NCBI GenBank assembly: GCA_008632985.1
Contig: QPGO01000020.1
Location: 558,001 to 622,000, forward strand
DNA: 64,000 nucleotides
Direction: 5' to 3'
From: Psammoneis japonica
Lineage: Eukaryota
Shown: piece after piece, positions 1 to 63,516 of the stretch
Layout: each line of letters starts with the position of its first letter
Position numbering within the stretch: the first letter of the stretch is position 1
Translations under genes and position numbers: made by a program
The notes under the pieces: model-generated
The model's database searches: none
Told to the model about the DNA's origin: nothing
What the model saw: only the letters and a program-made list of their open reading frames with translations

Positions 1-73
1 AGACTGCACAGAGATCCCGAAGGAGCTCATTGCAGCACAGCACAAGGTCACTCTTTGTCTGGACAGCCTCAAG

Positions 74-5902: not shown

Positions 5903-6229
5903 GATTGAAAAAATGAATTTCTTTGCTCGTGTAAGTCAAAACAAAATATATGCAAGATACTGGAAGAATGGAACAACCGAACACAACTCTCCAAACACAG
6001 GCTACTAATACTGTATCGTTCCTCTCTCGACTTTACTGGAGATGGCTGTCAAGGAAACTACAGCAGCAAACAACAAACTTCCAAACTGAAAACTGGAAAC
6101 GCATCAAATCATCATCCGCCCGACGACAAAACAAAATAATATGCAATTATCGGAGTTGAATGTCTATATTTGAGGGAAAATGCCGGTACCGCTCGCTCGA
6201 TGATGCGATGACTCACTCATCACATCATT

Positions 6230-9200
6230 TACGCACGCAATCATGGGCCATGGTTGGGGATGCAACACAGCGCCTTGTCGTGGAGACGACGAGTGGTTTT
6301 TCAAAGACTTGTTGCCCATGCCTCATGCCTGCGGCCTGGATCACTGCGACAGTCCAGCGCAACTGGCTGGCCTCTTGAGGATCCAAAGACTCTCATCATC
6401 AGAATCATCGCCATCAGAGTTTTCTCGCACACCGGCACTTTCTGGCTGGCTCTCAAGCTTCCTGGTGGTGTCGCTGAAGACCATGTCAAGGCCACAAGCA
6501 GTCATTTGGTGCTGCATGAAAAAGATGCATGGAATGACCATGGCTTCAGAAGCAACAAAGGCTGGCGGTTCTTGAAAAAAAAGGTTGCTGCTGATTTCTG
6601 TTTGGTGACCAAATGAGCCACAGACTGTGCGCTGGCAATGATGGAGCTTGGTCACACTGCAATCTGTTGATTGGATGGCAGCAAGGTCAGTGCAAGAATC
6701 ACAGCAGTGCAGCAGCCAAGAATCACAAGAAAACTGGGGCCACTTCTTCTCAGGCATGGAACTCAACATGGCGCAGCTTGAAGCTGTCAGTGTGTCCAAC
6801 TTGATGCACCGTTGAGAAAACTGTAAAGCTCATGCAATGCTGCTTGTGCACGGGCACAAAGTGCTGCAGCTGCTGGCTGGCTTGAAGTGTTTCTTGCTCT
6901 CAATCTTGGAAAGTGCTGTTGCAGCAAAAGACATGCAAGCTCCAGCTGCTTTCCGACGGTCGTTTGAGCTGACACACCCGCCCAATGTTTCAATGGCACA
7001 GGATTTGGTTGCAAAAGAGGATTGTTTGCATGTCATTGACTGAGCTTTCTTCTGTTGGACTTGCTCTCAACAACTTGCTTGTTCTTTTCTTTGAAGAACT
7101 TCATCAGCTGTTGAAAGGTGTTTTGAAGCAGCAAGAAAGCCTCTGCCCCATGCCCCATGTTCATTTTGATTTGGGTGTTGGGCATGCTTGCACATGTCCA
7201 AGACAAACAAGCTGCAATCAGAGTTGCTTGAGAGACACACTCCAGGCAGCATGCTTGGCATTGGAGCAACAGCGGTCATTTGAGATGGCTGCCAGTGATC
7301 ACAACTGAAGCTTTGAAGATTCCCCATCTGAGCTGGTGGTTTGTCTCACAGTGACACCACTCAATTGGTCTTGATGGCACACATGGCTTGAGGTTGTCAT
7401 TTTCGACTTTGCCTCCAGTTGGCAGCTTTCCTCCACACAACATTGACAAGCTTGGCATGCAGTGCCAGAGGCACAAATCATGTTGGAAGAAGCCAAGTTG
7501 GTCATGTGGCAAATGACTGTCAAGACTCCGCACTCATCACCTCTCTGCAACCGGCCTCACTTGATGCTTGATGGACTGAATGCATGCATCATGCAAGCAC
7601 CAAGTCAGCATGAAATGCAGTGCAATGAAGGGCTGGTGTGGCAATGATCTCATTCATTCGAGAAAGAGCACGAGGTGACTTGACAACGCTTTGCATCAAA
7701 AACAGCAGCTGGCTGCTGATGAAGCCACTGTGAAATGCCCAGTCCCAAGATTTTTGACAGGATTGGAACAGGATTTAGGTGCGCGCAAAATGTCGTGCGC
7801 TGTTCAGTTTACCGTGCACAGTTTTGTGTGCTTCAGTTCCGCGCGTTCGCGCGCTGTGCAGTTTGCTTTCGAGCCACAAGGCTCACAAGAATGACAACAG
7901 CAGCCCGATCACACCGACTCACACGTCTTTCGGCTCCTGCAACGGTCTCTGAGTGGAGACTCATCTGCCATTTAGACAGCAGCAAGGAGTTGTTGTTTGA
8001 ATTCTTGCCATTTGCCTTCAATTTCTGTCAGATTGACAGTCTTGCTCATTGTCAACCCATTGAGCAACCGCCATCGTCGTCGTTGATTTGCCGACGATGC
8101 CGTTTCAATTCTGCGTGGACCTCCGTGTGTGTTCTACGTACATCGGCAAGTCTGCGCGCATTCAATGCCAGGCATCGGCAGGAAGTTAACGTCACCGTCA
8201 AGTCTCCTCACCGCTGGACATCTGGGCTGATCATGCCACCTTTTGTCGCTAAAGACACACATTCAATTTTGGACAATGCTGCTGTTGCCTCCAGCTTGGA
8301 CACATGTCCAACAAGCAGATGCTGCCTCAGCTGCTTCATTCGTCATCAGCTGCATTTGACAAACAGTGGTTGGCTGCGCCAACTGGTTTGTTTGCTCATT
8401 CAAAAGTGAGAGACAGACAGACAGAGACAGCCACAACAACCAGTGTCATGACCAACATCACAGCCAAGCCAACAGCAGGCACACCCACACAAGCATGGCA
8501 CCTTTCTTTCTTGCCACTTGCAATGCACAAAGTCATCTCTCAGAATGGGGGTGGCTGAAGTCTCAAAGAGAAGTGTGAGTCACAAAGCATGACTCTGCAA
8601 GATGGCTGCAATCACAAATGAGTCAAACAGATCTTCAAACACTGTGGGATGTGGAGAAGAACACATCTGGTTGAAATTGGGGCTGATGACCCACAGAGGA
8701 GCATTGAACCCACTGGAGGGTTTTCAAATGTGAGAGACACTCAAAGAGCCACTCAAGTTGTCTGAAAGCACCTTGCAACTTTCATGAAAAAGGCTTTTTC
8801 CATCATGCACATCATCTTGGCCCAATGCTCAGACAACACAAGCACTCAAAAAGTGCGTTAGCTGGCAACTCAACAACTGCTCCATTTGACCTGTGCAAGC
8901 ATTCAATGCACATGCAAAAAGTGAATTTGCTGGCTGTGGCAGTGTGACCCCATCAGAGCCATGGGCCACTTTGAAAGGCAGTGGTTGTTTTTGATGTGTT
9001 CCAACAGCCTCAGGTGGGAGCTTGCAGTGCTGGGGTGTGACACAAACATTTTTTTGCAATGTGCTGCATGTCAAGCATGTGCACTGTGCATTTTTTAGTG
9101 GGCTCTTCCACAGAATTGCTCTGCACTCCCTGCTTTTCAAAGCCTGGTGATCATTGGTGCATTCATCACCTGACAATTTGCTGTGGAGCTTGCACGCAGA

Positions 9201-9734
9201 ATTTTTGCAGGCTCAGCAGCATCACAGCAGGAATTGCCACCCACCAGCACATCTGGGTCACATCATCGCACCTTGAGACAACTTCCAAAGACATGCGCAA
9301 CCAAGTGCACAGAGGAAAACAGGCCCACATGGCAATGGTGTGCCGACATCATTCAACAACTCAGCACTGGCAGAAGATCCAGCTTGCAACGAGAACAAGA
9401 TGATCAACTCACGGTGCCTTCAAAGCAACCATGGCAGCAAAGATGACGATGTGCTTCAAAGAGTCCAGTGGAAATTTTTGTGTCCTCCTTGCAACAAAAT
9501 GAGCGAACTGATTCAAACTTCACTTTTTCCCTGTGAACGGGATGACTTTCATAAAAGGACCTCACAAAAATGAGTGCAAAAATGGTGGTCATGCAGAGAT
9601 GATGCTGCAGTGTGCACAAGTGCCAAAGCCATGTCTCTTGTCTGCACAAAGCAGCAATGGCTCGGAGGCATTGCCCGCACCAGCAACAAGCACTTGCACC
9701 GGCAACAAGTGCGCACACCAGCAAAAAGCAGGCA
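6230..9734. repeat. TpA-depleted hypermutated repeat/TE remnant, family unidentified
   Basis: TA is nearly absent and TG/CA is abundant. Overlapping Cys/His/Gln-rich ORFs occur in all frames. Confidence 0.6.
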
Positions 9735-12493
9735 ATGAACTTGCCCCACCGGCATGTGTTTGATCCTGCTCTCCAGGCTTCTCTCTTTCGGTTTGGCTTC
9801 CCGGGCTGTAGGGTCGAATCGAGAACAGGCTGTGGAGAACACAAAGTACACTCTGAACTACAAAGTGCAACTTTAGCATGACACTGCATGTGCCATTGAT
9901 CCCACTTTATGCTTCTCTCCCTGAATTCGATTCCCTTGGCTACAACTAGGGTCGATTGCTTCCGTGACGCCAATCGGGAACGGGCCACAGCCAAAAACGC
10001 GAGGCTGTGGGCAGCATGCGGATCTAGCCTCTCTAGGCAGCAATGGTTGTGTTTGGCAATAAAAAGATTGTATTGGGATCCATTAATTTGAACGAGACGA
10101 TTGAAAAGCTGCATGAACAACAAAGTTCTGTGTTTGTTCTAGACGCCACAGAATGCTTTCCATCTTTTATTGCCACAGAGAGGAGCCGCCATCCTTCCTG
10201 GCGCATAGACAGAACCATTCCGTGACGCCAACACTCACCTCATTCTTTTCATTCTTCCACAATTCATTCTCCGCGTCCGAAACAAGCAAGGGCTTGGTTC
10301 ATTGACTGCCGCGGGTCTCGAGCAAATGCAGAGTCGTCATGTCGTTGAAGCACCAATCTTGCCTGGTGCACATTTTGTTCCGGAAAACACAAGTCGCGGG
10401 GTGGGACCCACTGTCACTTGAACCTTGGTATTTCAACAAAGACTGACTGCCGCATCGTTCAAGTCGGGTGGTTGAACCGGTGTGAGGGTGCATTTCTATG
10501 TCGACAAAATGAAGGGGAAAAGCAATGTCAGCAAACAAATCTCGAATGAAAAGCAAAATAGACACGAAATCGACTTACATTGGGGGTGCATTCGAATGTA
10601 GCGTAGCACAACGAGCGCACCCCATGGCATTTGAACTGCACGACAAACTCGTGCAATGTTGGCGAGTCTTTGATGCGCACAAAAGCTGCACTGCACCATG
10701 AAATGGAACCAAGAGATGCCCCCATGCATGCTCCATGTCCAAGAGTACAAAACAAGCAGTTAATGAGTCTAGCGGCGACTCATGATCCTTGCGGATCTAC
10801 ACACGACACACCCAGCATTAGACGAAAGAAAGACGCTGCCCGTTGCTCCACCGAGCCCAGGCAAGCGTCTCAAAGAGACAGGACGGGCTGCTTTCTCCTC
10901 GTTTCTCGCAGCAACAACAACAATGCCCACAGGATCGACGTTTTCGTCTGGAAACTCCGCGTTCTCCACGTCTTGATCCTCTCCTTCTGGCATGATGTCA
11001 TGTTGCACTAACCCATCGTCGACAGGATCCTCCGAATCATCCATCGGCATTTCCACGTCTGGTGGATCATTCAAGGCATCATCAGGCTCCTCGTCAGCTG
11101 CTGGAACGACTTCCCCCAAGGGTTCCGCTTCACCCTCTCCTTCTGGAACAATGTCATGTTGCAGCAACCCGACGCCCAAAGGATCCTCCGAATCGTCCAT
11201 CGGCACTTCCACGTCTGGTGGAGCATCCAAAGCATCGTCTGGCTCCTCACGCACTTCAACAACTGCATCCACCGGAACAACTTCCTCCTCGGCAACAGGA
11301 TCATCATCAAAAGCAATGGCAGGATCAGCAATGGGTTCCTCAACCACTGCAACTCCGAAAATGGCCTCGACCGGTTCAATTGCCGCTGGAGTCCGTACCC
11401 ATCCACGCCAGTGATCACATCTTGGGTGCGATTGACATCCATGAATGTACAGGTTTTGTTTCGAGTCAAACTCAAGCAGCGCCGCAGTCAACTGCTGATC
11501 ATTCAGGAGGGGAAGAACCCGAGTGTAACGTGGACGTCGAAGAACAGGTTTAGCAACCACGCCAGTTGGGATTGGAGGAAGGTCACCGACAAAGACATTC
11601 TTGATCAGGTCTTCATCCGGCAGCCATCCTAAAAGCCGCTGATGATGCTGCCGAGCCAGCTTGTCATGCTTCTCGTCGATTCGTCTCAATGCAACGTTCA
11701 ATGTCTGACCCGACAGCACTGGAATCTTGGTCGTGTGCTTTGGATGTCGAAGAACTTTTGGAGCAACCACGCCGGTTGGGACTGGAGGAGAGTCGCCAAC
11801 GACAATGCCTTGAACAAGCATTCGGTCCGGTCTCCATCTGATCCGACCGCTGCCACATGCTTTGCGCTTGGCGTCGTCAACAGCTGCTGCAGAATCGTCC
11901 AATGCTTCAGCCACAGGTTCCTTTACTGCGGCAACAGGAACGCCCACCTCCACATCGACTGGAGCATCGTCAACATCCACAGCAGGCTCGTTCAAGGCAT
12001 CCCAAGGATCAACAGTGTCATCAGCTTCAGGAGCTACATCCTCCACCGCAGTGGGATTGTTGCCCATGGCATCAGCTGGTTCAATGGCCGCTGGAGTCCG
12101 TTCCCATCCACGCCAGTGATCACATCTTAGGTGCGATTGACACTCACGAATGCATTGGTCCTGCTTCCATTCAAACTCACGCAGAGCTGCAGCCAATCGC
12201 TGTTCATCCAATGCGGGTGTTGCACGAGTGCATTGAGGGATCCGAAGTCCTCGCGGAGCAACCACGCCGGTTGGGACTGGAGGAGTGTCACCAACGTCAA
12301 TGCCTTGAACAAGCATTCGGTCCGGTCTCCATCTGATCCGACCGCGACAAAATGGCTCACGCTTCAAGAGCAGCAGCCATGGGGATAAAAATTGCAAGGG
12401 AACATATACGGCATAATGCATGGTCCATACAACCACTGCAACCGCAAGAATGGCCGCAACAGCATCGCACGCTCGATCATAAAGAAGAGTCGT

Positions 12494-12840
12494 TGTGGGA
12501 AAGTAGCCAGAATTCTAAGATTCGTCTGCACTTTCAGTGGTCAAAAGCTGCAATTGCGATACAACAATCAATCAGTAACTTTATTGTACCAAAAGTTGAG
12601 AGGTGATAATCAGTACGTTAGAAAGATTATGAGCAGTTTTTATGAGCAGATGCAGCTGCCATCTAAAGGAAACGCGAAGTTAAACAAGCGCGAAGCTAGG
12701 AACAAATATCGCATTCGTGACTCGGCTTCCGCGGGATTCGAGACTGAGCATCGCACACGGGGTTCGAATCTTGGATCTCTGATTGGAATCGTGGAGGTCC
12801 GATGTTGTTGTAAAAACATGCAAATATGAATATTGTCACA
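12494..12840 (-). repeat. 3' LTR (largely unmutated)
   Basis: Direct repeat of 18655-19001. Preceded on the minus strand by PPT TTGAAGGGAG (12841-12850). Confidence 0.95.
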
Positions 12841-12883
12841 CTCCCTTCAACAATGTCGGGTGGAATGATGACTCGAAAACGTC

Positions 12884-15800
12884 TTACCACTTAAGGAGCG
12901 ATTTCCTGTGTTTAACGAAGAGATTCTGTGGTAGAGGTTTGGTGAAAATGTCTGCAATCTGATCCGCCGTATCAATTGGTAGGATTGATATGAGACCTTT
13001 GCGAACATGGTCTTTAAAGTGGTGGAGAGTGAGGTTGAAGTGTTTTGTCCGAGGACGCATCTTAGGCAATCTCGCGATCTCCAATGCTCCAGAATTGTCT
13101 TCAAAAGCCTTACAATGTACGACTGGTGTCTTGGAAGGGACATTATGACCGTGATCCATAAATTCTTGAATGAGGTTCATAATTGGGATGGTGCTTCGAA
13201 GACTTTCCGAAAGAGCGATAAATTCAGCTTCAGTAGTGCTGAGCGCGATCTGAGTCTGTAGCTTGGACGTCCAGACAATCGGACATCCTGCATAGGTGAT
13301 GACAAACCCAGTTCGAGATTTGGAAGTGCCGACGTCATTGGGTGCAGTCAGCTTATTCCAATTGCCCACAAAGTCCGCGTCGGCGTGAACTTCAAGGGAC
13401 TTGTCCGTTGAGGGCTGTAGTATAATACCTTCAGTTCTGGTTGACCTTAGGTACTTACAGAGCCATAGTACGGCTTCACCGTGAGAAACCTTGGGATCGG
13501 AAGAAAAGCGTGCGACTTGGTGCACCGCGTAAGCGATATCCGGTCGAGTGCTCTTCTCCAGAAAATTGAGCTTGCCGATGATGGATCGGTAATGAAAGCT
13601 CCCTTGGAAAGCAGGCTCACTCATATGCCTGTGGAGGATCTTGGAGGAAGGAGCAGGAGTAGACTTATCTGGTAGTCTCTTTGGAATATTGGCCATCTCC
13701 AGTATCTGATTGATAAGGTGAGGTTGGGTAAGTTTCATTCTGCCGTCTGGTAGTGTCTCGACGTTGACACCGAGATAGTCGTCCAGAGTGCCTTGATCAT
13801 CAATATCAAACTTCTCATCTCTGATATCCTGTATCGCCTTGTCAATAGCAGACTTGTCAGGGGATGCAAAGATACCGTCATCGACATAATGAATGAAAAT
13901 GACATTGCCACGAAAATACAGGCACTCATCAACTGCCGATTGTACGAAACCAATCCTTAACAATCCATCACGTAAGTGTTCTTGCCATACTCTCCCTGCT
14001 TGCTTTTGTCCATATAAGTTCTTGAGCAACTTCAGAACATGAGTCTTACCATTGCCATATCTTGTTTCAATTCCTGCAGGTAACTCCATGTACATATCAT
14101 ATTCGATATCGGCATGCGGATACGCCAGAACGAAGTCGACTTGGCGTGTATGCCACTTCTTAAGAATGGCAATGATCAGTAGGAGCCGGATAGTGAACCA
14201 GAAGACCACGGCAGAGTAGGTCTGGAAGTAGTTGACAGCATACTCTTGCTTTCCACCGTGCACATTAAGTCGGGACTTCCATTTGTAGACGGCTTGGGTC
14301 TTAATATCTCTTTTGCGCTTCATAGACCATACCGAAGGGAGAACATCAACATCGTCAGGTACGTCCTCTCTTGGAATGAGTATCCAATGTTTCCTTTCAA
14401 TATGATCATTGACTTCCTTAACACAGGCCTTGATAAATTCGTCTCTGTCAGGTTCACGCATAGCCTGATCAAAGTACATGGTGTCGGGGTCCGAGCTCGC
14501 CAGAAAAGAGATAGGTGAGTCCATATCGTCCTGCAGTTTGTAATCATCCTCGTGCATCGCATCATAATATGCCTCTGCCTCTGCATTGTAGGAGACAATG
14601 CCTTGAGCCCGTTGTAGTTGGCTCTCGCGCATCCTTTCGGTCGGGCGTCGTTGTCGGCCGGACCTACTGGTATTGGGTTGACCCATAGTGCGCTGTGGCT
14701 CAGATGGTGCGTCTGAATCATCTGGAGGTGTGTATAGCATTTCATCATCCGGTTGGGCATTGTCAAATGAGTCATCAGTGGTAGACGTATCAGTAGGATG
14801 CAGCAGCTGAGACGGGATATCCGAATTCGGCTCAGGTGGTTCCGTTGTGGTAGGGACTGATCCCTCAACCGGTACGTCACTTGATTTCCCAAAGATGTTG
14901 AAAGTACTCCTTGTCTTGAGTTGTCTGAAACCTGTAATGCCTTGCCATTGTGAGAATGTAGGAGGATTCCCAGCAGATGGACGAACAGTCTCAAAGAAGT
15001 CGTCAAATTGTACGTGAAATTGCGGCGATACGAGTCCGGTCTGCAAATTCAAAACCAAGGTAACTGAACCTGCGTGTCTTGTTGATGGTCCCAAATTGAT
15101 TCCTAACCTTGCCCTTGGGTCCCACTTAGGCAGCCTACCTCCTCCCTGCAACCGGTTGTGCAAGGCGTAGACGGGACAGCCGAAGGTATGGTGTTGTTTG
15201 AGATTAGGCTGGACCTTAACGGACGAGAAACGTTCCAGCGGAGAAGAGCCGTCCTCGTGATTCGGTAAGTGATTCTTGATCTCGTTTGAGTTCCTGAGAG
15301 CGCTTGGCCATAAGTTCAACTCAATAGCCGTTGGCCATCTCACTTTTGCATGCAGGAGTTGCTTCCGAGATTGCTCTTGGAGGTCCCTTATTCTTTTCTC
15401 CGCGATGCCGTTTTGGAAGTGGGCGTTGACCCCACAATAGGATATTGTTTGCTGTTGCTTCTTGACGTCTTGTATGAAAGCATTATCAGCGAATCTTCCA
15501 TTGTCGGCGTGGTAGTGTTGAATACGGACGTGCATCCGGCGTGCGAATGCCTCGAAAGCGTGCTTGGCTTCGAGCGTTTCGGCTGAGGTAAGTCCTTTCT
15601 GCAAATATATGTATCCCAATCCGCTGAAATGATCAACAAAAATTGTCGCTGCTCGATACCTTTGCTTCGTAGGTCTCCCTTTGAGCTGTGGGATCAATCC
15701 AGGAGTAGGACTCTCGAGCTGGTCGACGGATACGGCTTCTCCAGGCGAAGTTGCCAAGTGGATTCGTCGGTTCCGCTTGGACTTGGAGCGCCATGGTCGT

Positions 15801-17074
15801 TTCGTCATGGCACCGTATAGGCAGCCGGCACATTTTGGGTTGTGTACCTTTGTAAGGCGTTTCGGTAGAATGCCTAGGGCGGCCAATAGCTTTATCATTT
15901 TGAATGACATGTGGCCCAGGCGGTAATGCCAACGCAATAGTTCACCCTGGTCATCTGTGGCAGCAAGGGCGTCATCATTTGGTGTGATGTTGATGGGTTC
16001 CGGAAAGTCCTGCTGTGCCTCCGGTGTCGTGAAATCCCTTAGGTTTTCCTCGTCTGAGTCTGAACGACTTGCTCCGTCTGTTGGCTCAAATGAGACAGGA
16101 GCATCCTCATCAGCAGTGTTGCGTGCGTCTTGCGTCTCGGAAGGACGTGTCTCGGATGGACTTCTGAAGACGTCTGTATCAATTGCAGCCTCGTCATCAT
16201 TCGCAACACTCTCGTCGTCTGGTGGTATGATGTGAGCTTGACAGGCCACGTGCTCGATAGTTTCGATGTCGGTTTGTTCTTCGACAGCGGCTGCAAAGGT
16301 CCGGCATTTGTTGGAACCGGGTGCGGAGCGCATCTTGGCGACGTTAGAGTTGGCGGACCATGGAATCAGGCGATGGCACTTGCGCTGGTCCCACATCAGC
16401 AACAGTCCGTCGTCCCCAGTCCAAGATGCGGTTCCGTGAGGCTCTGGCGTGTGGTCATTGGCTTGCTGGCTCCATTGCTGCGGGCAGAGAAGACAATGAG
16501 GTAAGTCCGGTACGAGCAGCGCGTCTCGAATTTTGATGCTGTGCACTCGTCCCATGTCGTCCTCAATTGCCCACTGCACTGTTCCTTCTCCCTCAGCACG
16601 CAAGCAGCCCTTGACACCGAGTGCCACTTTGTTGGATTTGCGAAGAGGACCAATGAAGTGTGCCTCGTCGTTGGACATGGTGCAGGAAGAATGTGAGTCG
16701 ACACCGATTGCGAATGAGTCCGAATCGTAAGTGGGCTCCGTTCGCTCGGGACGGCATGGTGTGGTTGAGTTGTGCGCTCTAACCGTCTTGTGTCGCGCAA
16801 TGACACAGCGAGCCTTCTTGGTGGCCACTCTGGAGCGGTGACCTGGCCTCGTCGACGCATGACACCGTGCGCAGCACCTCGTCGTTGGCCGTCGCTGGTG
16901 AGTCTTAACTCGTCTTGTGCACTTTTCTGAAGGAAGGGACAGCATCACGAATGGCAGTGTGATCCAGATCGGTGCTGCACATTTCATGACGCCAGCGACC
17001 GCTGTCAGGAGCACTGACACAGTGACGGCTGTCTGCAAGGACAGCAGCAGTGTCAGAGTGAACCTGCAGAGCAG
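12884..17074 (-). CDS. pol: copia Pol polyprotein (protease, GAG-pre-integrase, integrase, RT, RNase H)
   Basis: Uninterrupted 1384-aa ORF with motifs IGVDSHSS, WHYRLGH..CAGC, SVDQ..ADNG..QNGIAE, LYGQKQAG, HYVDD, ADADF and ADIFTKPL. Confidence 0.95.
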   Translation of the reverse strand: MLCRFTLTLLLSLQTAVTVSVLLTAVAGVMKCAAPIWITLPFVMLSLPSEKCTRRVKTHQRRPTTRCCARCHASTRPGHRSRVATKKARCVIARHKTVRAHNSTTPCRPERTEPTYDSDSFAIGVDSHSSCTMSNDEAHFIGPLRKSNKVALGVKGCLRAEGEGTVQWAIEDDMGRVHSIKIRDALLVPDLPHCLLCPQQWSQQANDHTPEPHGTASWTGDDGLLLMWDQRKCHRLIPWSANSNVAKMRSAPGSNKCRTFAAAVEEQTDIETIEHVACQAHIIPPDDESVANDDEAAIDTDVFRSPSETRPSETQDARNTADEDAPVSFEPTDGASRSDSDEENLRDFTTPEAQQDFPEPINITPNDDALAATDDQGELLRWHYRLGHMSFKMIKLLAALGILPKRLTKVHNPKCAGCLYGAMTKRPWRSKSKRNRRIHLATSPGEAVSVDQLESPTPGLIPQLKGRPTKQRYRAATIFVDHFSGLGYIYLQKGLTSAETLEAKHAFEAFARRMHVRIQHYHADNGRFADNAFIQDVKKQQQTISYCGVNAHFQNGIAEKRIRDLQEQSRKQLLHAKVRWPTAIELNLWPSALRNSNEIKNHLPNHEDGSSPLERFSSVKVQPNLKQHHTFGCPVYALHNRLQGGGRLPKWDPRARLGINLGPSTRHAGSVTLVLNLQTGLVSPQFHVQFDDFFETVRPSAGNPPTFSQWQGITGFRQLKTRSTFNIFGKSSDVPVEGSVPTTTEPPEPNSDIPSQLLHPTDTSTTDDSFDNAQPDDEMLYTPPDDSDAPSEPQRTMGQPNTSRSGRQRRPTERMRESQLQRAQGIVSYNAEAEAYYDAMHEDDYKLQDDMDSPISFLASSDPDTMYFDQAMREPDRDEFIKACVKEVNDHIERKHWILIPREDVPDDVDVLPSVWSMKRKRDIKTQAVYKWKSRLNVHGGKQEYAVNYFQTYSAVVFWFTIRLLLIIAILKKWHTRQVDFVLAYPHADIEYDMYMELPAGIETRYGNGKTHVLKLLKNLYGQKQAGRVWQEHLRDGLLRIGFVQSAVDECLYFRGNVIFIHYVDDGIFASPDKSAIDKAIQDIRDEKFDIDDQGTLDDYLGVNVETLPDGRMKLTQPHLINQILEMANIPKRLPDKSTPAPSSKILHRHMSEPAFQGSFHYRSIIGKLNFLEKSTRPDIAYAVHQVARFSSDPKVSHGEAVLWLCKYLRSTRTEGIILQPSTDKSLEVHADADFVGNWNKLTAPNDVGTSKSRTGFVITYAGCPIVWTSKLQTQIALSTTEAEFIALSESLRSTIPIMNLIQEFMDHGHNVPSKTPVVHCKAFEDNSGALEIARLPKMRPRTKHFNLTLHHFKDHVRKGLISILPIDTADQIADIFTKPLPQNLFVKHRKSLLKW

Positions 17075-18580
17075 TCACTCTTGATCCACTTCGTTTGGGA
17101 TGGCAGAGATGGCACTTGCGAAGGAGACTTTCTTGTCCGACGTGTCTGTGGATGGAGCAGACTGTTGCTTGCGGAGTCTACAGCCTTGGTTGCCCGGATC
17201 ATCAGGCAAGTGCATGACCCAAGCAGTGTGACATGGGCACCAGTGACAGTCGCGATTGTTGACGCGCTTGTGATGGCACTGATGACCGTTCACTGTCTTC
17301 TCAGGAGCGTCCTCCTTGGGCGGGACTTTCTTCCAGGCTTCGTCCGCTTTCTGTCTCTGACGTGGAGTGGTCTTGGTCTTCCTTGACCGTGTGCTTCTTT
17401 CCTTGGTTGAACCAGCCTTGGCCTTCAAAGCTTTAGATGGCTGAAGGTTCTGATCCTTGATGGAGTCTACCTTGGCTGCAAGCGCGACGATTTGCTCTTC
17501 AGCCGGTGATGGTGCTCCCCACTTCTTCTCGCGCTTGAGGTCAGCACATTTGTTCAGTGCCAACGTCATGATTTGCGTCGGCGTGAATTCCTCACCGTCG
17601 TCGCACCTGTCCTTGTGCAACATGATGTGCTTGACGAATGCTTCGTCAGCAGCTGCGGCGCATCCTTTGAACAGATTCATGATGAGGTCGTCGCACTGCT
17701 CTCCTCTAGCTTGGAGTCCGTCAACGTTGAGCTTGGCATGCTTGTTGAACTCTTCGATGTCCGAGTTGACAGCCGCCATGCAGGTGTCCAGGCTTGACAA
17801 GTTCTCGCGGAAGCAGTTGGTGGCAGAGCGTGTGTCAACGATGGCCTTTTGCGCAAGCAGCTTGAAGAATGGTGTGCCGATTTGATTTCCATTGATCGTG
17901 TGGGAATCTGTCTCAGCCAATGTCTTGTCTCTTGCTTCCTCCGCAAGGGATTGAGAGATCGCCTCGGCCATCTGCACATTGTTCTGTGCTTGTCGCGCAG
18001 GCAGATTCGCGAAGGTGTTCGCGTGGGTTCTAACATCCTGCAGAGTGAGCAGTCCGCACTCGGAGATGAGATCTCGTGGAGTTCCATTCACGTCGGGAAT
18101 GGCAAGCATGTCTCCTGCCCCTGTTTTCCATCCTGCCTCGGCAGCTCGTTGACCGAGTGTCTCACAAAACCGTTTGAGACCTTCTGAATCGCCGTTGAAC
18201 TCGTGCGGCAGCGGTGCAGCAGCGGCGTTCCAAAGCTTGAGGCCTTGCGATGTGCCGCAGTCAATGAAGTTGTTGGGACGGTGTTGACCTGGAGTCAACG
18301 CGAAGATCGGCAGTGGCGGCACAGGCGCCAATGGTGGTCCACCTGGCGGGACTCCACCTGGTGGGACTCCACCTCCGCCTCCTCCTCCACCTCCTCCGCC
18401 ACCTCCTCCTGGAGGCACACCGGGAGGAACGACTGGGGGAGGTGCAGGAGCAACTGGAGCGGCTGCAGGAGCAGGTGCTGTTGCCGGAGCAGCAGCAGTG
18501 GCAGGAGCTGCAGCGGGTGCAGCAGCGGGAGCTGCAACAGAGGCAGCTGGAGCAGCCGCGGTTCATGTCTGCGTGACCAC
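17075..18580 (-). pseudogene. gag: copia Gag with Ala/Pro- and Gly-rich N-terminus, start codon lost, no Tyr left
   Basis: Motifs FALTPG, NSDIEEFN, KKWGAPS and zinc-finger-like HWCPCHTAWVMH. The frame extends upstream to GTG GTC ACG CAG ACA TGA at 18580. Confidence 0.85.
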
Positions 18581-18641
18581 AGCAACAGCAGAGTAAAGCA
18601 GAATCGAGAGCTCAAGATCGATTGACTCAACTTGTAGATTT

Positions 18642-18654
18642 CGCAGAGGAAGCG
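18642..18654 (-). promoter_or_regulatory. Putative primer-binding site complementary to the D-arm of initiator tRNA-Met
   Basis: CGCTTCCTCTGCG abuts the 5' LTR. Its complement CGCAGAGGAAGCG resembles the eukaryotic tRNAi D-arm GCGCAGNGGAAGCG. Confidence 0.6.
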
Positions 18655-19001
18655 TGTGGGAAAGTGGCCAGAATTCTAAGATTCGTCTGCACTTTCAGTG
18701 ACCAAAAGCTGCAACTGCGATGCAACAATCAATCAGTGACTTCATTGTGCCAAAAGTTGAGAGGTGACAATCAGTGCGTTAGAAAGATTGTGAGCAGTTT
18801 TTGTGAGCAGATGCAGCTGCCATCTAAAGGAAACGCGAAGTTGAACAAGCGCGAAGCTGGGGACAAATGTCGCACTCGTGACTCGGCTTCCGCGGGATTC
18901 GAGACTGAGCATCGCACACGGGGTTCGAATCTTGGATCTCTGATTGGAATCGTGGAGGTCCGATGTTGTTGTAAAAACATGCAAATGTGAACATTGTCAC
19001 A
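18655..19001 (-). repeat. 5' LTR (hypermutated)
   Basis: Direct repeat of 12494-12840 with 19 transitions. Confidence 0.95.
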
Positions 19002-22000
19002 GTCGTCAGGTCGTCAATGTCCACAATTCGGCGGTGCAAGTGATGGACACAACTGCCAATTGACTTCAACACCAAGCACATGAATGTCACAGCATGCAAA
19101 GAGAGGAGAACTTTACAGACCGCAAGGACAAAGGACACGACAGCGTGAATCGTGCATCGAATCTTGCTTGCAGAAACGCACGAATTCCAAAGGAAACCGC
19201 TGATGATTCGGCCGTGGTTCTGCTTGCCGTGATGTGCACGTAGCAGGAGATTCACAAAGAGCATGATTAGTGCAATGCATGCAATCACAATGGGGGCAAC
19301 AGTGTCAACAAAGATAGAGATTGGTAAGAGTGTTTCAATTCAACAGAAATTGGATTTTTGTGTGGTGAGAGAGGTGAGCGAGACACGGTCGCTCGTTGTT
19401 GCGGCTGACACCATTCGTGAATGCGTAGAAACTCTACTGGAGAAGCCTGTAGAGAAGCCGACAGTCAGTCACGCTTTTCAAGTTTTGACGGGAGACTAAC
19501 TAGAGGCACGTTTGCATTCGGTTCCTCGTAGGCTCTCAACTAGCCAGTAGTGGGGTGAAACAGTCAGAGGCCGAGACTGTGATAATGTTAGATTTATCCA
19601 TTTAAAATGAACAATATCTGCTTTTGAGCTCTTCTACAATGACACTCAGTTTATTGGATTCTCGTGCTTTCTCCCGCGGCAGATTTGTTAAAGCATCTGA
19701 CAATGAAATAAATTCTTGATCGAAAATATCGGTAGGGTAAGACTACTCATTCTCCGCCCCAATGATTGAGGAGTAGCCTCACAGGCTGGTATAATGACGC
19801 ATTCACTTCCGTGCGTACTCGACAGTGCCGGGGGTGCTATGTCTTTGCGTATCTTCGCCAACAACTTGAACAACAGAGCTATCGCTTTACGTTGCTGAAA
19901 GGTAACTTGTTGATCAAACAAACAACCGGCACCAGACTCTTTGGCCGCATTGATGAAAGTACTTTCTCAAACAACTTCGTTTCTTCAGCACTGACGACCA
20001 GAGCATCGTGCTTGTTTTCAAGACATTAGCATGTGACTAGTAAGGCTCCCCTTGCGTACGCAGCAGCAGAGACAAGAACACATCCAGCGCAACTTGGTCA
20101 CACCGGATAGAAGATTCAGATACTATTCCCGTAAGTCCAAGCACGTGATACTTGCCCATAGCCTGACTGGTTGATGTTGTTGCAATGGCAGGTAAAAGTA
20201 TTTCTACCGGGCATGCGACTGAAACGGCAAACAAGTCGATTGACACCAACATTCGGCGTAAATTTAGTGCCGCCAGACTCGAAGTATAGCTGTTTGCTCT
20301 ATTTAGCTTCGTTGCGGGTGGTATCAAGCTAGGGTTGTCTGCTCCGACTGTACCGGTACGGCGAAACTGTACTCTACTGTAGGAATACCCGCAAAACGAA
20401 GAACCTCCAGAAGAAAATACAATAGCGAACATTCCCTCGAATCTTGCAAAGAATTTCAGACTTGTTGGGTTAATCGGGCATGGGTATTTACCATAGGGAA
20501 ATCTGAAGTAATCAGGATGCATCTTGCACATAATTTCAGACTTCTTGGGTCGTTCCGTCAAAAGCACTTACAGTAATCTGAAATACTCACGGTGACTATG
20601 TTGTATCCCGCCTGTCGTGTCACGGTCTGTAAAAGCAAGTGAGGAAAGGTGAATGCCAAAGTTGCGCACGTTTCCCAACCACCAATGTACCATACAATAA
20701 TGATTCTTCTCAAGAAATTTGACTTGACGAGTCGTTAAGGCAGTTGAAAAGTTCATTTTGCGCGGGTGACGAAGCAACAGCAACAGCAACGCGAAAAGGG
20801 AGATCGAACAATCGCGTCTGGCGTCTGACAACTACTTGTTGGTTGCTTATCTTTTTCGTCTGCAGACTGGATTGCAGCTCTCTGCTACAAATGTACCGCA
20901 CTTCACTCTGGGGTTCACCATTCAACTCCAGATCCACCTGTTGCGACATGTGCGTTTCACACGACAGAGGTCTGGATACCTGTGGTGTGCGGCACGAGAG
21001 GGCTCTCTCGAGTGCCATGGACTTGCTACTGCATGGAATTGTTTCGACGTCTTGAAGCGCAGCGGGCTTTTTCCCATGTTGAATGGATGCGTTTGAATTT
21101 GAAGCGTTGGATTTTCTGTCCGCCGTCCCGTCTCCCGTCCGTCGTGCGCAGAGTTTGTCAACACAGCAAAGAAAAAACACCGCACCATGGCGTGTGGAAC
21201 TCGGAGACCTACCACTCTGTAACTTCTGTAAGGATTTGTCAAGCGACACCGCGTCTAAGAATTGTTTCATAACTTCAAGTTTTGCCATGATTTATGGGGT
21301 CGGTGTTTGGATTAAAGGACGGCAGGAGAACGGCAGGAGAATCAGAAGTGCTGAAAAAAAGGCGTCCATCTCGGCATAAAGAGCAAGTACATCATGCGGG
21401 ATACAACTCGATCGGCAAGCTTGTTTGGTCGGTTTGGTGGCTTGTTTGGTGGATGTCATTTTGAAGTTCTATGTGAATGAATCATACTCGTTTGTATTAC
21501 AAACATGCTGATGCGCCTTTCCTCTTATTCAAAATACAATCTGTCTCATTCCATACTATTTTTCTTTGGAATAGCTCAAACATGAATTAAGTATTACGAT
21601 TTACGATGGCCCCGGGCATTGCAGCCGAGATTGGTAGCCAGATTGGCGCCCATGGGAATAATGATGTCTCGGCCGGCGCTTCGCCCATCCTTACCCTACG
21701 GTTGTATGCTCATTACTATGGATGCAGGTAAGTTGTATCCTTCACTAAAAACGTTTGGAGATTCGCAACCCGAAAGCATCCTCTCTTTTTGGTTTCCACC
21801 TGGTACGGAGTTTCATTTCTAATCTCATTCTTTATTCCGTTGCTTGTCATACCCAATCACAGCCAGCATCTTTATGCGAGAAATGGACAAGTAGTGGATT
21901 GTCTCATGTAAATGCCGCAGCTGTTGGTAGGGAAGTTTTCAGTGCATTCACGATATTCATTTCGGGTAATTGCTGTCATGGCTGTTGCTTTCGGTCATCC

Positions 22001-27465: not shown

Positions 27466-29009
27466 TTTCATGTCGTGCTTCAAATATAAGCTATGTGCTC
27501 GACGGTATCATGAATACCCTTCATTTTTGCTTCCAAGGCTTTCTGAGCATACCTGTACTTCTGATGCACTTCATCACAATCCAAGCATGAGACGATGTTC
27601 TTATTATACAGGCGTCTCTGACCCGTGGCAGCAGTTGCGCTCGCTTGTTCCCCGAGAAACATCTCTCTCACGACACTTTTACAAACAAGGCAACTCTCTG
27701 AGCCTTGATAGTTGTTATAGTTGAAGCAGTCCCTCGAGAGTCAAATGCGAATGCCATCCATATGCTCCGTCGCGATTCATGTAACAGTGATTCTACGTTG
27801 TACATAGTCGACCCGAGTGCGCTCTCCAAGACAGAGCATTTGCTTTTATCAGTTTCAAGCGCTCGTATTCTGACCATGTGTGCCCTTCAAGTGATGGAGA
27901 AATGCCAAAGCTAGAGAGGACACTGGGTGCAGTTTGCCTCCTGTACTTTCCTCGTCTGTAGCGGGATCGGTTTGCATTCGTATTAATGCTCGAGTTTGCA
28001 ACAAGAGCCTGCATCGGTCCTACCAGAGTCTATCTGATACACCAGGGTCCAACACACTACGAAGGCGTGACCGTCGTTGCCTCTCAACATGTCATAACTG
28101 TCCACGATTATGTGTTTTGCTTTGGCCGTCAATCTTCAATCTTTATTCATGCGCTCCAAGCAAATGCATCAGCGATGATATCAGTTTAAGAGCCTACCAG
28201 AAACCGGATTCCGATATCTGTAGATGCGACGCTGCTTGTCTCGCCCTCGAGAACCCGAGCAAAGCAGCCGTAGTTTTGCAGCAACAGTAATAACAACACG
28301 AGCCAATCAGAAACTCGAAGACGAGCCCGCAAACGAAGCTCGCCCATTCTCGCAACGGCATTCCCAAGATTCAGAGGCAACCATTTCAAGCCAAGTATAA
28401 TAGCTGTGTATCGTTTCAAGCCCGTACACGAGTCACGTTGGTCGTGCTTCCTCCTGAATTCAGAATGGGACACGCCAAGTTTCCAACTGCACGCTAGGTT
28501 GAGTTATGCAGGGGAAAGTAGCCATTATCTTGCGTCGACCTTGCTGCAAAGCGATCGATAAATTCTATAACGGCCAAGCTCTGTCGTCGGCAACGCATCG
28601 TTGGCGACTCACTCAATCACTGCGTAGACATCAACAATAATACTTTTTCAAGAGCTTCTTTGCAGTCACTTGTAAAGGGCCGAATGTCACCAACTGAATG
28701 TTCTTGTTGAGAGTCGCCGAGTGACTGCTCAGCCCAAACCACGCGGTAGCATAATCACATATCACATTGATTTGCGCCTCATCTCTCCGTCTCGGGAAGA
28801 CGTTTCCCATGCAGTTTCTGAGATGCTGTACCGACTGCCTGTCTGATTTTCAAATTTTTGATTCCTCTTCTTTCTCCTCGCACTTGTATACATAGATGAG
28901 GGATTAATTCTATATATGGATTTTAATATTTTCTTTTGATCTCAACGGATCCGTTTAGGAATGATCGTCAGACGGAAATAAGAGAACATAATTTTAATGA
29001 GGAAATAAT

Positions 29010-59385: not shown

Positions 59386-60163
59386 ATGAGTGTCGACGGA
59401 GTCATTCTTCCGCCAACAGGATATCTGCAGGCGAGTGTTGGAGCTGTGTGGGAGGCGGGAGGAGTATATATTGCTGATGAAGTGCTAACAGGGTTTGGGC
59501 GTCTAGGGGAATGTTATCGGGCATTTCAGCATTCCTTTGATGAGAGCATGAAGTCTTCTGTAGTGCCTGACATTGTAGCGGTAGGCAAGACTTTCGGAAA
59601 CGGTATGCCACTGGCGGCGGTTATCACAACACACGAAATATCCGATGCTTTTGAATCCATGGGTGTACCGTAGAGTACTTCAATACCTTTGGGTGGAATC
59701 TCGTTTGTTCAGCTGCAGGCCTAGCTATGCTTGATTCCATGGATTCGGAGAATCTCCTGCAGAATGTGGCCAAGGTAGGGAAGTACCTCACGAGACGGTT
59801 TCTCATTTTGAGGGCCACTACATTGGATATCATTGGCGACGTCAGAGGATCGGGACTGTTCTTTGACATTGAACTCGTTTGGAATAAAACGACGTTTGAG
59901 ACTTCCTTCCTTCGCACCGTCCTAAGGAGAAATACACAATTCTAACGATCATCGATGGACCATGCAATAATGTGCTGGTTGTAAAACCGCCATTGGTGTT
60001 TAGCATGAGTGACGCTGATTTCTTCATCGAAAGCTTCGAGAATGCCGTTCTTAACGACTTGGCACTCTTCGGGGACGTGCCGCGGGAGCAAGCACTCGGA
60101 GTAGAATCCAATAAACTGAGTGTCATTGTAGAAGAGCTCAAAAGCAGATACTATTCATTTTAA
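59386..60163 (+). pseudogene. Class III aminotransferase (ETNPPL/PHYKPL-like phospho-lyase), disrupted
   Basis: GGVYIADEVLTGFGRLG, PDIVAVGKTFGNGMPLAAVITT, EYFNTF, IGDVRGSGLF and NVLVVKPPLVF, with stops and frameshifts. Confidence 0.88.
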
Positions 60164-63100
60164 ATGGATAAATCTAACATTATCACAGTCTCGGCCTCTG
60201 ACTGTTTCACCCTACTACTGGCTAGTAGTTGAGAGCCTACGAGGAACCGAATGCAAAAGTGCCAGCCTCCCGTCAAAACTTGAAAAGCGTGACTGACTGT
60301 CGGCTTCTCTACAGGCTTCTCCAGTACAGTTTCTACGCATTCACGAATGGGCCAGACGCAACAACGAGCGACCTTGTCTCGCTCACCACTCACCACACAA
60401 AAATCCAACTTCTGTTGAATTGAAACACTCTTACCAAAATCTCTATCTTTATTGATACTATTACCCCCATTATGATTGCATACATTGCACTAATCATACT
60501 CTTTATGAATCTCCTGCTACGTGTATATCACGGTAAGCAGAACCACGGCCGAATCATCAGCGGTTTCCTTTGGAATTCGTGCGTTTCTGTAAGCAAGATT
60601 CGATGCACGATTCACGCTGTCGTGTCCTTTGTCCTTGCGGTCTGTAAAGTTCTCCTCTCTTTATATGCTGTGACATTCATATACTTGGTGTTGAAGTCAA
60701 TTGGCAGTTATGTCTATTACTTGTACCTCCGAATTATGGACATTGACGACCTGACGACTCTTCTTTATGATCGAGCGTGCGATGCTGTTGCGGCTATTCT
60801 TGCGGTTGCAGTGGTTGTATGGACCATGTATTATGCCGTATATGTTCCCTTGCGATTTGTGTCCCCATGGCTGCTGCTCTTGAAGCGCAAGCTATTTTGT
60901 CGCGGTCGGATCAGATGGAGACCGGACCGAATGCTTGTTCAAGGCATTGACGTTGGTGACACTCCTCCAGTCCCAACCGGTGTGGTTGCTCCACGAGGAC
61001 TTCGGATCCCTCGATACACTCGTGTAATACCCGTATTGGATGAACAGCGATTCGCTGCAGCTCTGCGTGAGTTTGAATGGAAGCAGGACCAATGCATTCG
61101 TGAATGTCAATCGCACCCAAGATATGATCACTGGCGTGGATGGGTACGGACTCCAGCGGCCATTGAACCAGCTGATGCCATGGGCAACAATCCTACTGCG
61201 GTGGAGGATGTAGCTCCTGAAGCTGATGATACTGTTGATCCTTGGGATGCCTTGAACGAGCCTACTGTGGATGTTGACGATGCTCCAGTCGATGTGGAGG
61301 TGGGCGTTCCTGTTGCCGTAGTAAAGGAACCTGTGGCTGAAGCATTAGACGATTCTGCAGTAGCTCTTGACGAAGCCAAGCGCAAAGTATGTGGTCGCGG
61401 TCGGATCAGATGGAGACCGGACCGAATGCTTGTTCAAGGCATTGACGTTGGTGACTCTCCTCCAGTCCCAACCGGCGTGGTTGCTCCAAAAGTTCTTCGA
61501 CATCCAAAGTATACGACCAAGATTCCAGTGCTATCGGGTCAGACGTTGAACTTTGCATTGAGACGAATCGACGAGAAGGATGACAAGCTGGCTCGGCAGT
61601 ATCGTCAGCGGCATTTAGAGTGGCTGCCGGATGAAGACCTGATCAAGAATATCTTTGTCGGTGACCTTCCTCCAATCCCAACTGGCGTGGTTGCTAAACC
61701 TGTTCTTCGACGTCCACGTTACACTCGGGTTATTCCCCTCCTGAATGATCAGCAGTTGACTGCGGCGCTGCTTGAGTTTGACTCGAAACAAAACCTGTAC
61801 ATTCATGGATGTCAATCGCACCCAAGATATGATCACTGGCGTGGATGGGTACGGACTCCAGCGGCAATTGAACCGGTCGAGGCCATTTTTACTCCGCCAG
61901 ATGCAGTGGTTGAGGAACCCATTGCTGATCCTGCTATTGCTGTTGATGATGATCCTGTCACCGAGGAGGAAGTTGTTCCGGTGGATGTAGTCGTTGAAGG
62001 GCGTGAGGAGCCAGACGATGCTTTGGATGCTCCACCAGACGAGGAAGTACCGATGGACGATTCAGAGGATCCTGTAGGCGTCGGGTTACTGCAACACGAC
62101 CTTGTTCCAGAAGGAGAGGGTGAAGAGGAACCCTTGGGGGAAGTCGTTCCGGCAGCTGACGAGGAGCCTGATGATGCCTTGAATGATCCACCAGATGTGG
62201 AACAACCGATGGACGATTCGGAGGAACCTGTGGACGATGGGTTAGTGCAACATGACATTATGCCAGAAGGAGAGGATCAAGACGTGGAGAACGCGGAGTT
62301 GCCAGACGAAAACGTCGATCCGGTAGGCATTGTTGTTGTTGCAAGAAACGAGGAGAAAGTAGCCCGTCCTGTCTCTTTGAGACGCTCGCCTAGGCTCGGT
62401 GGAGCAACGGGCAGCGTCTTTCTTTCGTCTAATACTGGGTGTGTCGTGCGTAGATCCGCAAGGATCATGAGTCGCCGCTAGACTCATTAACTGCTTGTTT
62501 TGTACTCTTGGACATGGAGCATGCATGGGGGCATCTCTTGGTTCCATTTCACGGTACAATGCAGCTTTTGTGCGCATCAAAGACTCGCCAACATTGCACG
62601 AGTTTGTCGTGCAATTCAAATACCATGGGGTGCGCTCGTTGTGCTACGCTACATTCGAATGCACCCCCAATGTAAGTCGATTTCGTGTCTATTTTGCTCT
62701 TCATTCGAGATTTGTTTACTGACATTGCTTTTCATCTTCATTTTGTCGATATAGAAATACACCCTCACACCGGTTCAACCACCCAACTTGAAACGATGCG
62801 GCAGTCAGTCTTTGTTGAAATACCAAGGTTCAAGTAACAGTGGGTCCCGCCCCGCGACTTATGTTTTCCGGAACAAAATGTGTACCAGGCAAGATTGGTG
62901 CTTCAACGATATGACGACTCTGCATTTGCTCGAGACCAGCGGTAGTCAATGAACCAACTCCTTACTTATTTCGGACGCGGAGAATGAATTGTGGAAGAAT
63001 GAAAAGAATGAGGTAAGTATTGGCGTCACGGAATGGTTCTGTCTATGCGCCAGGAAGGATAGCGGCTCCTCTCTATGGTAATAAAAGATGGAAAGCATTC

Positions 63101-63516
63101 TGTGGCGTCTAGAATAAATATAGAACTTTGTTATTCATGTAGCTTTTCAATCGTCTCGTTCAAATTAATGGATCCCAATACAATCTTTTTATTGCCAAAC
63201 ATAACCATTGCTACCTAGAGAGGCTAGATCCGCATACTGCCTATAGCCTCGCGTTTTTGGCTATGGCCCGTTCCCGATTGGCGTCACGGAAGCAATCGAC
63301 CCTAGTTGTAGCCAAGGGAATCGAATTCAGGGAGAGAAGCATAAAGTAGGATCAATAGTACATGCAGTGTCATGCTAAAGTTGTATTTTGTAGTTCAGAA
63401 TATACTTTGTGTTCTCCACAGCCTGTTCTCGATTCGACCCTATAGCCCGGGAAGCCAAACCGAAAGAGAGAAGCCTAGAGAGTAGGATCAAATACATACC
63501 GGTGGGGCAAGTTCAT
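60079..63516 (+). repeat. Intact (TpA-retaining) copy of the ~3.4-kb inverted duplication
   Basis: Aligns to the reverse complement of 9735-12493 plus 19007-19680. Confidence 0.93.
60472..62481 (+). CDS. 669-aa orphan protein: hydrophobic N-terminus, internal repeats, acidic tract, basic C-terminal RRSPRL/RRSARI motifs
   Basis: Intronless ATG-TAG ORF. VGDxPPxPTGVVA x3, CQSHPRYDHWRGWVRTPAAIEP x2 and EEPDDALxxPPD x2. Confidence 0.65.
   Translation: MIAYIALIILFMNLLLRVYHGKQNHGRIISGFLWNSCVSVSKIRCTIHAVVSFVLAVCKVLLSLYAVTFIYLVLKSIGSYVYYLYLRIMDIDDLTTLLYDRACDAVAAILAVAVVVWTMYYAVYVPLRFVSPWLLLLKRKLFCRGRIRWRPDRMLVQGIDVGDTPPVPTGVVAPRGLRIPRYTRVIPVLDEQRFAAALREFEWKQDQCIRECQSHPRYDHWRGWVRTPAAIEPADAMGNNPTAVEDVAPEADDTVDPWDALNEPTVDVDDAPVDVEVGVPVAVVKEPVAEALDDSAVALDEAKRKVCGRGRIRWRPDRMLVQGIDVGDSPPVPTGVVAPKVLRHPKYTTKIPVLSGQTLNFALRRIDEKDDKLARQYRQRHLEWLPDEDLIKNIFVGDLPPIPTGVVAKPVLRRPRYTRVIPLLNDQQLTAALLEFDSKQNLYIHGCQSHPRYDHWRGWVRTPAAIEPVEAIFTPPDAVVEEPIADPAIAVDDDPVTEEEVVPVDVVVEGREEPDDALDAPPDEEVPMDDSEDPVGVGLLQHDLVPEGEGEEEPLGEVVPAADEEPDDALNDPPDVEQPMDDSEEPVDDGLVQHDIMPEGEDQDVENAELPDENVDPVGIVVVARNEEKVARPVSLRRSPRLGGATGSVFLSSNTGCVVRRSARIMSRR

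Follow-up and report, generated by a model that had tools for sequence, protein, structure and literature searches.

A TpA-loss tract with a sharp edge inside a Ty1/copia retrotransposon of Psammoneis japonica suggests mutation after integration determined by position

We analysed 64,000 nucleotides of the genome of Psammoneis japonica (contig QPGO01000020.1, positions 558,001 to 622,000; called the window below), which hold a complete Ty1/copia long terminal repeat (LTR) retrotransposon. Only part of this element is mutated. Its protease (PR) region, gag and 5' LTR, together with adjoining host DNA, are nearly free of the dinucleotide TpA, and this state ends abruptly inside the element, at the start of the integrase (IN) region, while the remaining part has the TpA content of ordinary DNA. 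We think that this is probably the result of a DNA-level process that acted after integration, turned TpA into CpA or TpG and came near to saturation in a bounded chromosomal tract determined by position, in a way similar to that reported for Bigelowiella natans (10.64898/2026.01.13.699255). A TpA-loss mutator is thus already known, and the copia locus is a further instance of it, valued as a sharply defined test locus. What is new here is an edge within an element, twin sequences with discordant fates, strand symmetry, a T-A-Y preference and a link to CpG decay.

Results

The element has the TG...CA LTR ends, the 5-bp target-site duplication and the domain order PR-IN-reverse transcriptase (RT)-RNase H of Ty1/copia elements (Table 1). 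Its target site is uninterrupted in a paralogue at 60754-60759, and a purine run, AAGGGAG, lies immediately upstream of the 3' LTR. The pol open reading frame (ORF) stays open across the editing edge and encodes YVDD at residue 1051. Since the target-site duplication is intact, the 347-bp LTRs are free of indels and pol is open across the edge, the element represents one insertion event. The 447-aa ORF, which is called gag here by its position upstream of pol, matched no Pfam family. No second copy of the copia element was found within the window.

The original prediction, made from the letters alone, had described a sharp boundary at 15900-16400 between a nearly TpA-free gag side, with CpG retained, and an IN-RT-RNase H part with normal TpA, and each of these points holds. 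A maximum-likelihood change point places the edge at the lower end of that bracket (Table 1), with a gain in log-likelihood (delta lnL) of 57.7; the share of TA among TA+CA+TG sites (the TA ratio) is 159/653 in the unedited part vs 21/563 in the edited one (Fisher p=1.8e-26). No further step within the edited tract was significant (delta lnL 1.7). The edge falls in the linker between PR and IN, where the gag_pre-integrase domain begins (residue 358, ~15967). IN-RT-RNase H (12841-15939) has a TA observed/expected ratio (o/e) of 0.68, a value at the level of the window's unedited DNA, while 17041-18600 contains exactly 6 TA. CpG o/e in the interior of the element is 0.83 in the edited and 0.89 in the unedited part.

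The encoded proteins are divided in the same way. Gag has no Tyr in 447 aa, its 26 homologues having 1.5-4.6%, and at 12 columns where these conserve Tyr the element has Cys (7), His (3), Phe (1) and Ala (1). Pol contains 31 Tyr, 30 of them at residue 372 or beyond. Where pol relatives conserve Tyr, the element keeps it at 24/31 columns located at or below 15925 and at 0/3 located at or above 16306; the three conserved-Tyr columns of the protease region read Cys (2) and Leu (1). Mostly Cys and His thus stand at the relatives' Tyr columns in the TA-free half and Tyr is mostly kept elsewhere, which identifies the TA-free half as the mutated one. As a control, and for that use only, we took 11 copia relatives from metagenome contigs (38-61% identity): 9 lack TA-poor segments altogether, and in 2 the only such segments are short (201 and 290 bp). 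As these relatives are not edited, a TA-free gag/PR half is no family trait. Two sequences from public databases, P0011 (1,481 aa) and P0008 (919 aa), have about 1% Tyr, the median among 120 pol relatives being 3.4%; at 34 conserved Tyr columns P0011 has Cys at 15, His at 3 and Tyr at 12, its N-terminal part being the most affected. Their Tyr poverty indicates that the same signature is present on other public contigs.

Direction and timing can be read from two pairs of sequences that were once identical. The LTRs, the first pair, have 19 differing sites in 347 bp. At 14 of them the 3' LTR has TA where the 5' LTR has CA (11) or TG (3) on the sense strand, and the reverse does not occur; of the five others, four are A/G or T/C differences outside TpA and one is C/T. 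Altogether 18/19 differences have A/T in the 3' LTR and G/C in the 5' LTR, 14 of these 18 at TpA. The process had also been expected to act faster than CpG decay, and this agrees with the LTRs: 14 TpA edits in the 5' LTR came with no CpG loss (18 vs 18).

The second pair is provided by the flanks. An inverted segmental duplication places a paralogue of the insertion region (copy B) about 41 kb from copy A; copia lies inside the copy A reading frame, and only copy A is edited. Copy B lacks copia, is TA-normal and has an intact 669-aa ORF (60472-62481, +) with internal repeats, which spans the position of the insertion site; this ORF matched no Pfam family and gave no usable Atlas match. Copy B served as a proxy for the unedited ancestor of the flanks: its 152 TpA sites were aligned onto copy A, and the edited ones were tallied per interval from the site list (Table 1). 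Between the paralogues, 94 changes run from TA in copy B to CA/TG in copy A and 2 in the opposite sense. Outside TpA, changes in 10210-12380 are balanced (A/T>G/C 17 vs G/C>A/T 15), and 1/146 polarised sites in edited zones changed on both bases. The changes are almost all A>G / T>C and lie on TpA dinucleotides.

Against this paralogue it is clear that the tract crosses the LTR/host junction, as had been proposed from the letters. Edits run about 310 bp into the host DNA beside the 5' LTR, where 21/24 sites are edited, and then stop past 19315. On the other side, next to the 3' LTR, 108 bp of host DNA were mostly spared (2/7 vs 13/14, Fisher p=0.006; p=0.04 vs the left tract), and in 12386-12480 six TA are retained, 6/6 of them in editable contexts. 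Since the LTRs differ, host DNA is edited and flanks that were once contiguous are discordant, editing took place on DNA and after integration. The simplest reading of these alignments would be that insertion came first and that the element and its flanks were then overlaid with an edited tract, 15943-19309, and an unedited island, 12386-15938. This agrees with the proposal of a mutator working in kb-scale tracts on integrated DNA, heedless of element borders. Moreover, the LTR pair and the paralogue pair each comprise one edited and one unedited member, so that targeting is positional; to judge from the two comparisons, sequence, copy number or a freely acting homology guide would not be sufficient for it.

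Both strands are edited. The T>C : A>G counts are 12:9 in the right flank, 24:21 in 10210-12380 and 11:13 in the third region, and no strand-coordinated (kataegis-like) clusters were found in the flanks (runs tests, z = -0.12 and -1.45). In the element interior RCA (+22.5/kb) and TGY (+9.8/kb) are both raised, roughly in proportion to their substrates. Editing of both strands in the absence of strand runs speaks against an R-loop or a single processive pass along one strand. Editing does depend on the neighbouring bases: at the polarised sites of 9735-12380 and 18655-19309, edits are found in 42/48 RTAY, 55/74 one-sided and 5/21 YTAR sites (p=4e-7), and in the one-sided sites they are on the T-A-Y strand in 38/55 (p=0.006). 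Window-wide, YTAR accounts for 74/154 of the residual TA in edited tracts vs 254/1559 of the TA in normal DNA (p=8e-18). These counts indicate that the mutator prefers an A followed by a 3' pyrimidine (T-A-Y), and with such a preference Tyr (TAY) mostly becomes Cys.

The copia tract is one of several. TA o/e is 0.40 in the whole window, with a bimodal distribution. A two-state hidden Markov model (HMM) over the TA ratio calls six TA-poor tracts of 2.2-8.7 kb each, 28.7 kb in total or 45% of the window, in which the TA ratio is 0.014-0.056, near saturation; they alternate with six normal segments with TA ratios of 0.19-0.265. The tract edges in the window are sharp in 10/10 cases, with 2-lnL support intervals of ~30-200 bp. 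TpA hypermutation is confined to these kb-scale regions, at a rate far above that of the neighbouring DNA. CpG o/e ranges over 0.14-0.87 in the six edited tracts vs 0.71-1.00 in the six normal segments. Only four edited tracts, 29009-36599, 42826-51511, 6201-9807 and 5-3180, show CpG decay (o/e 0.14-0.57), and none of the six normal segments is CpG-poor; the two tracts around the copia element still have 0.85-0.87. As CpG has decayed in four edited tracts only, TpA loss precedes CpG decay. It is reasonable to suppose that cytosine methylation affects the same domains as TpA loss, and the four CpG-poor tracts are suggested to be the older ones.

Concerning the content of the other tracts, a Pfam scan of 37 ORFs of at least 150 aa gave no match in the old tracts, apart from a weak RVT_2 match at 1125-2066. 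Three other tracts were examined at their ends for terminal repeats, of which neither these nor the 6.2-19.4 kb block as a whole had any. The weak match belongs to a second, older copia-like pol (1125-3255, +), traced by tblastn to RNase H; it is TA-poor to ~3180 and TA-normal after that, so that its 3' end is again spared, and its 5' part lies beyond the window. Degenerate tandem repeats (67-92% identity) occur within old edited tracts at 34215-35763, 48386-49225 and 50768-51281. Numerous ORFs of 100-160 aa overlap one another in several frames at 16000-19000 and 10769-12436. They are a by-product of the loss of TAA and TAG, and open frames in edited tracts are therefore no evidence of genes. 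The TA-normal DNA between tracts at 36787-42106 (-) holds host genes: mitochondrial carrier exons, a DUF5010/CBM35 protein and a metallophosphoesterase-like ORF.

Table 1. Coordinates of the copia element, its edited and unedited parts, the polarised site counts and the TA-poor tracts (positions in the window)
Feature	Position	Strand	Basis or count
Complete Ty1/copia LTR retrotransposon, 6,508 bp	12494..19001	-	LTR pair and Pfam domains of pol
Target-site duplication GTCGT, left copy	12489..12493		Identical to 5-mer at 19002-19006
Target-site duplication GTCGT, right copy	19002..19006		Identical to left copy
3' LTR, 347 bp, unedited, 18 TA, 18 CG	12494..12840	-	LTR pair
5' LTR, 347 bp, edited, 4 TA, 18 CG	18655..19001	-	LTR pair
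pol ORF (PR-IN-RT-RNase H), 1,384 aa	12884..17038	-	Pfam Pol_BBD, gag_pre-integrs, SH3_retrovirus, RVT_2
gag-like ORF, 447 aa	17075..18418	-	Position and 26 homologues; in frame with pol, one TGA between
Inner editing edge	15938..15943		Maximum-likelihood change point, 2-lnL support 15893-15976
Edited tract, ~3.37 kb: PR region, gag, 5' LTR, ~310 bp host DNA	15943..19309		HMM, change points, polarised sites
Unedited island, 3.55 kb: 108 bp host DNA, 3' LTR, RNase H-RT-IN	12386..15938		TA ratio 165/678 = 0.243
Copy B, inverted paralogue of 9735-12493 and 19002-19681	60078..63516		Self-blastn, 94.8% over 2,766 bp and 91.9% over 692 bp
Copy A edited tract (host-gene copy split by copia)	10210..12380		~68% of ancestral TpA converted
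Polarised TpA sites edited	9753-9807		5/5
Polarised TpA sites edited	9809-10206		19/34
Polarised TpA sites edited	10232-12353		44/65
Polarised TpA sites edited	12405-12480		2/7
Polarised TpA sites edited	19024-19309		21/24
Polarised TpA sites edited	19315-19652		2/17
TA-poor tract	5-3180		HMM
TA-poor tract	6201-9807		HMM
TA-poor tract	10210-12380		HMM
TA-poor tract	15943-19422		HMM (polarised sites put outer edge at ~19309)
TA-poor tract	29009-36599		HMM
TA-poor tract	42826-51511		HMM

Discussion

We favour the following course of events. After copia had integrated, a DNA-level process would have converted TpA to CpA or TpG (A:T to G:C) within 15943-~19309, that is, in the PR region, gag, the 5' LTR and some 310 bp of upstream host DNA, leaving out the adjoining 3.55 kb with IN-RT-RNase H, the 3' LTR and 108 bp of host DNA. 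The process would act on either strand of TpA, favour T-A-Y and end once TpA is destroyed, and where a piece of DNA lies, not what it is, would decide whether it is edited. The tracts may be domains of chromatin or methylation that are inherited and either recruit the mutator or give it access, the edge at 15940 being then a domain edge; the bounded chromatin domain considered in the original prediction is compatible with everything seen. As to the chemistry, adenine deamination on DNA may be involved, as the preprint 10.64898/2026.01.13.699255 proposes, and oxidation or another modification of T in R-T-A would yield the same pattern.

The closest known system is that of B. natans, for which Mettrop et al. 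(bioRxiv, 10.64898/2026.01.13.699255) describe TpA-specific A:T to G:C hypermutation of integrated foreign DNA. In mutation-accumulation lines, 230/231 mutations in two integrated viral regions were A>G/T>C, all on TpA, at rates more than 1000-fold above background; 124 TpA-depleted clusters were found, reverse-transcriptase domains were enriched among TpA-depleted coding sequences, and an ADAT2-like enzyme was named as candidate. As far as the preprint's main text goes, the two systems share near-exclusive TpA to TpG/CpA changes, regional action on the kb scale, tracts that pass the annotated border of an insert, and TpA-depleted, CpA+TpG-enriched clusters rich in reverse-transcriptase genes. 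They differ in their targets, which in B. natans are giant-virus and virophage inserts and here an LTR retrotransposon and a duplicated host-like gene; in the tract that ends here inside an element; and in the degree of depletion, near saturation here (TA ratio 0.014-0.056) vs a TpA rho of 0.45 in the B. natans nucleocytoplasmic large DNA virus region. In the main text we found nothing on boundary, LTR, retrotransposon, CpG, trinucleotide or context, and the supplements may hold more. Beyond the preprint, we found no other report of TpA-loss hypermutation in the literature, only papers on fungal repeat-induced point mutation (RIP) and on animal deaminases.

Fungal RIP resembles the present case in that DNA-level, dinucleotide-specific transitions ruin transposons within discrete tracts and can spread beyond them into adjacent DNA. 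However, RIP changes C to T at CpA and so creates TpA, which is destroyed here, and it affects both copies of a repeat, whereas here editing is seen in one LTR and one paralogue but not in their twins. With opposite polarity and one member per pair affected, the locus is not a case of RIP. APOBEC3 and ADAR in animals likewise leave edited retroelement copies through deaminase-type hypermutation, ADAR favouring a 5' U/T. Unlike the process seen here, they act on cDNA or RNA before integration, edit both LTRs alike and spare host flanks, and APOBEC gives G to A. The differing LTRs and the edited host flank place the copia element outside this type.

Could the element have been edited before integration by an ADAR-like enzyme on RNA or cDNA, or could the polarity be reversed, a RIP-like change of C to T having made TA in the 3' half? 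A preference for a 5' U is known of ADAR, and RIP turns CpA into TpA, which gives both ideas some appeal. Nevertheless, reverse transcription yields identical LTRs and 14 TpA sites differ between them, host DNA is edited, and the TA-bearing half has the TA o/e of ordinary host DNA and keeps the conserved Tyr of the family, the TA-free half having Cys and His instead. We leave these ideas next to no probability: as far as sequence can show, the LTR pair, the host flanks and the Tyr columns refute both.

It is also hardly credible that the whole element was edited and that gene conversion, cDNA-mediated or ectopic, then replaced its 3' half from an active copy without edits. Such conversion is known for yeast Ty1; it would leave the 3' LTR unedited and the internal junction perfectly sharp, and the IN-RT-RNase H ORF is intact. 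Yet the unedited state runs 108 bp into unique host DNA, which is not part of any cDNA or other copy; all six TA that remain in this host DNA are in editable contexts, and the window has no other copy of the element.

Very unlikely, too, is a processive deaminase specific for single-stranded DNA (ssDNA), working on R-loops or on DNA exposed by transcription close to the 5' LTR promoter, which was the mechanism suggested originally. In its favour, the promoter-proximal half is the edited one, the copia-like pol at 1125-3255 (+) is edited to ~3180 with its 3' end again spared, and the Tyr-poor relative P0011 is worst affected in its N-terminal part. However, the tract is not centred near the promoter: from the 5' LTR, one edge is 308 bp away and the other 2.7 kb. 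In the ~310 bp upstream of the element, which the LTR promoter does not transcribe, 21/24 sites are edited, and the unedited half is presumably transcribed (sense), so that full-length transcription would expose it too. Edits on the two strands are interleaved, with no strand-coordinated runs, which does not fit a processive ssDNA enzyme, and the excess in the 5' LTR is on the template strand (11 sense T>C vs 3 sense A>G) and not on the displaced sense strand. In addition, the largest hypermutable region in the preprint is described there as transcriptionally silent.

A related idea, which we consider unlikely, is that a short gag-PR transcript ending at the start of the integrase marks that stretch and some upstream DNA in cis for the mutator. 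It is suggested by analogy with Arabidopsis, where a short gag RNA (shGAG) of a Ty1/Copia element terminates in a sharp peak at the integrase start and draws 95% of the EVD small interfering RNAs (Oberlin et al. 2017, PMC5580714). To the extent that this paper describes shGAG, the parallel is a positional coincidence only: the editing edge likewise lies at the start of the integrase region, while editing also covers U3 and host DNA upstream of such a transcript. In its simple form the idea is at odds with the edited U3 and upstream host DNA, which lie outside the transcript, with the unedited 3' LTR, and with the second copia-like element (1125-3255), whose edge is near the end of pol. If true, it would mean that RNA or transcription directs DNA mutagenesis, as a mutational analogue of RNA-directed DNA methylation, and the mutation footprint would record the subgenomic transcript of a transposon.

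Several observations weigh against our own explanation by position-determined editing. The reach of the unedited island into host DNA is based on 7 polarised sites, 2 of them edited. The chromatin or methylation domains are deduced from CpG decay and from nothing else, and in the copia tract hardly any CpG has been lost. Identity with the B. natans system would be by signature only, and the scale differs: for B. natans the preprint gives 124 clusters of at least 3 kb in a ~95-Mb genome, against 45% of the window here, so that either this region is unusual or the organism is different from B. natans. The 5' LTR, taken alone, leans toward one strand (11 vs 3, binomial ~0.06). Finally, the pattern could be a mosaic, either an assembly switch between edited and unedited haplotypes or a real allelic recombinant.

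The mosaic deserves closer attention, although we regard it as improbable. It supposes an edited haplotype or lineage (~9.7-19.3 kb) that received the unedited 12386-15938 by gene conversion, by a double crossover or by a haplotype switch of the assembler. Both edges of the island are very sharp, edited tracts flank it on both sides, it carries host and element DNA, as an allelic patch would, and the preprint reports that such regions diverge fast between cultures of one strain. On the other hand, ten of the ten edges in the window are equally sharp, which means that sharpness needs no recombination, 2/7 host sites within the island are edited, and the mosaic requires two long-separated haplotypes, ~4% apart locally and otherwise of the same structure.

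If the rates of the preprint apply, the time scales can be estimated. Its 231 mutations in 3,132 generations over 8,469 TpA correspond to ~9e-6 per TpA per generation, and a TpA loss of 85% would then take ~2e5 generations. The 5 non-TpA differences between the LTRs in 347 bp, at 3.5e-10 per site per generation, would correspond to ~2e7 generations. On these figures the spared half would have been shielded at least 1000-fold, and for long, across an edge of at most ~85 bp.

In summary, the locus is a natural experiment on how a mutator that was reported only in 2026 picks its targets, with two once-identical sequence pairs that met opposite fates and a switch within ~85 bp. It offers exact coordinates (12383, 15940 and 19310) at which a chromatin, methylation or transcript edge can be sought, and any candidate enzyme must reproduce the T-A-Y context. 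With sequence, repetitiveness and freely diffusing homology guides excluded as sufficient, the locus points to a positional mark inherited in cis.

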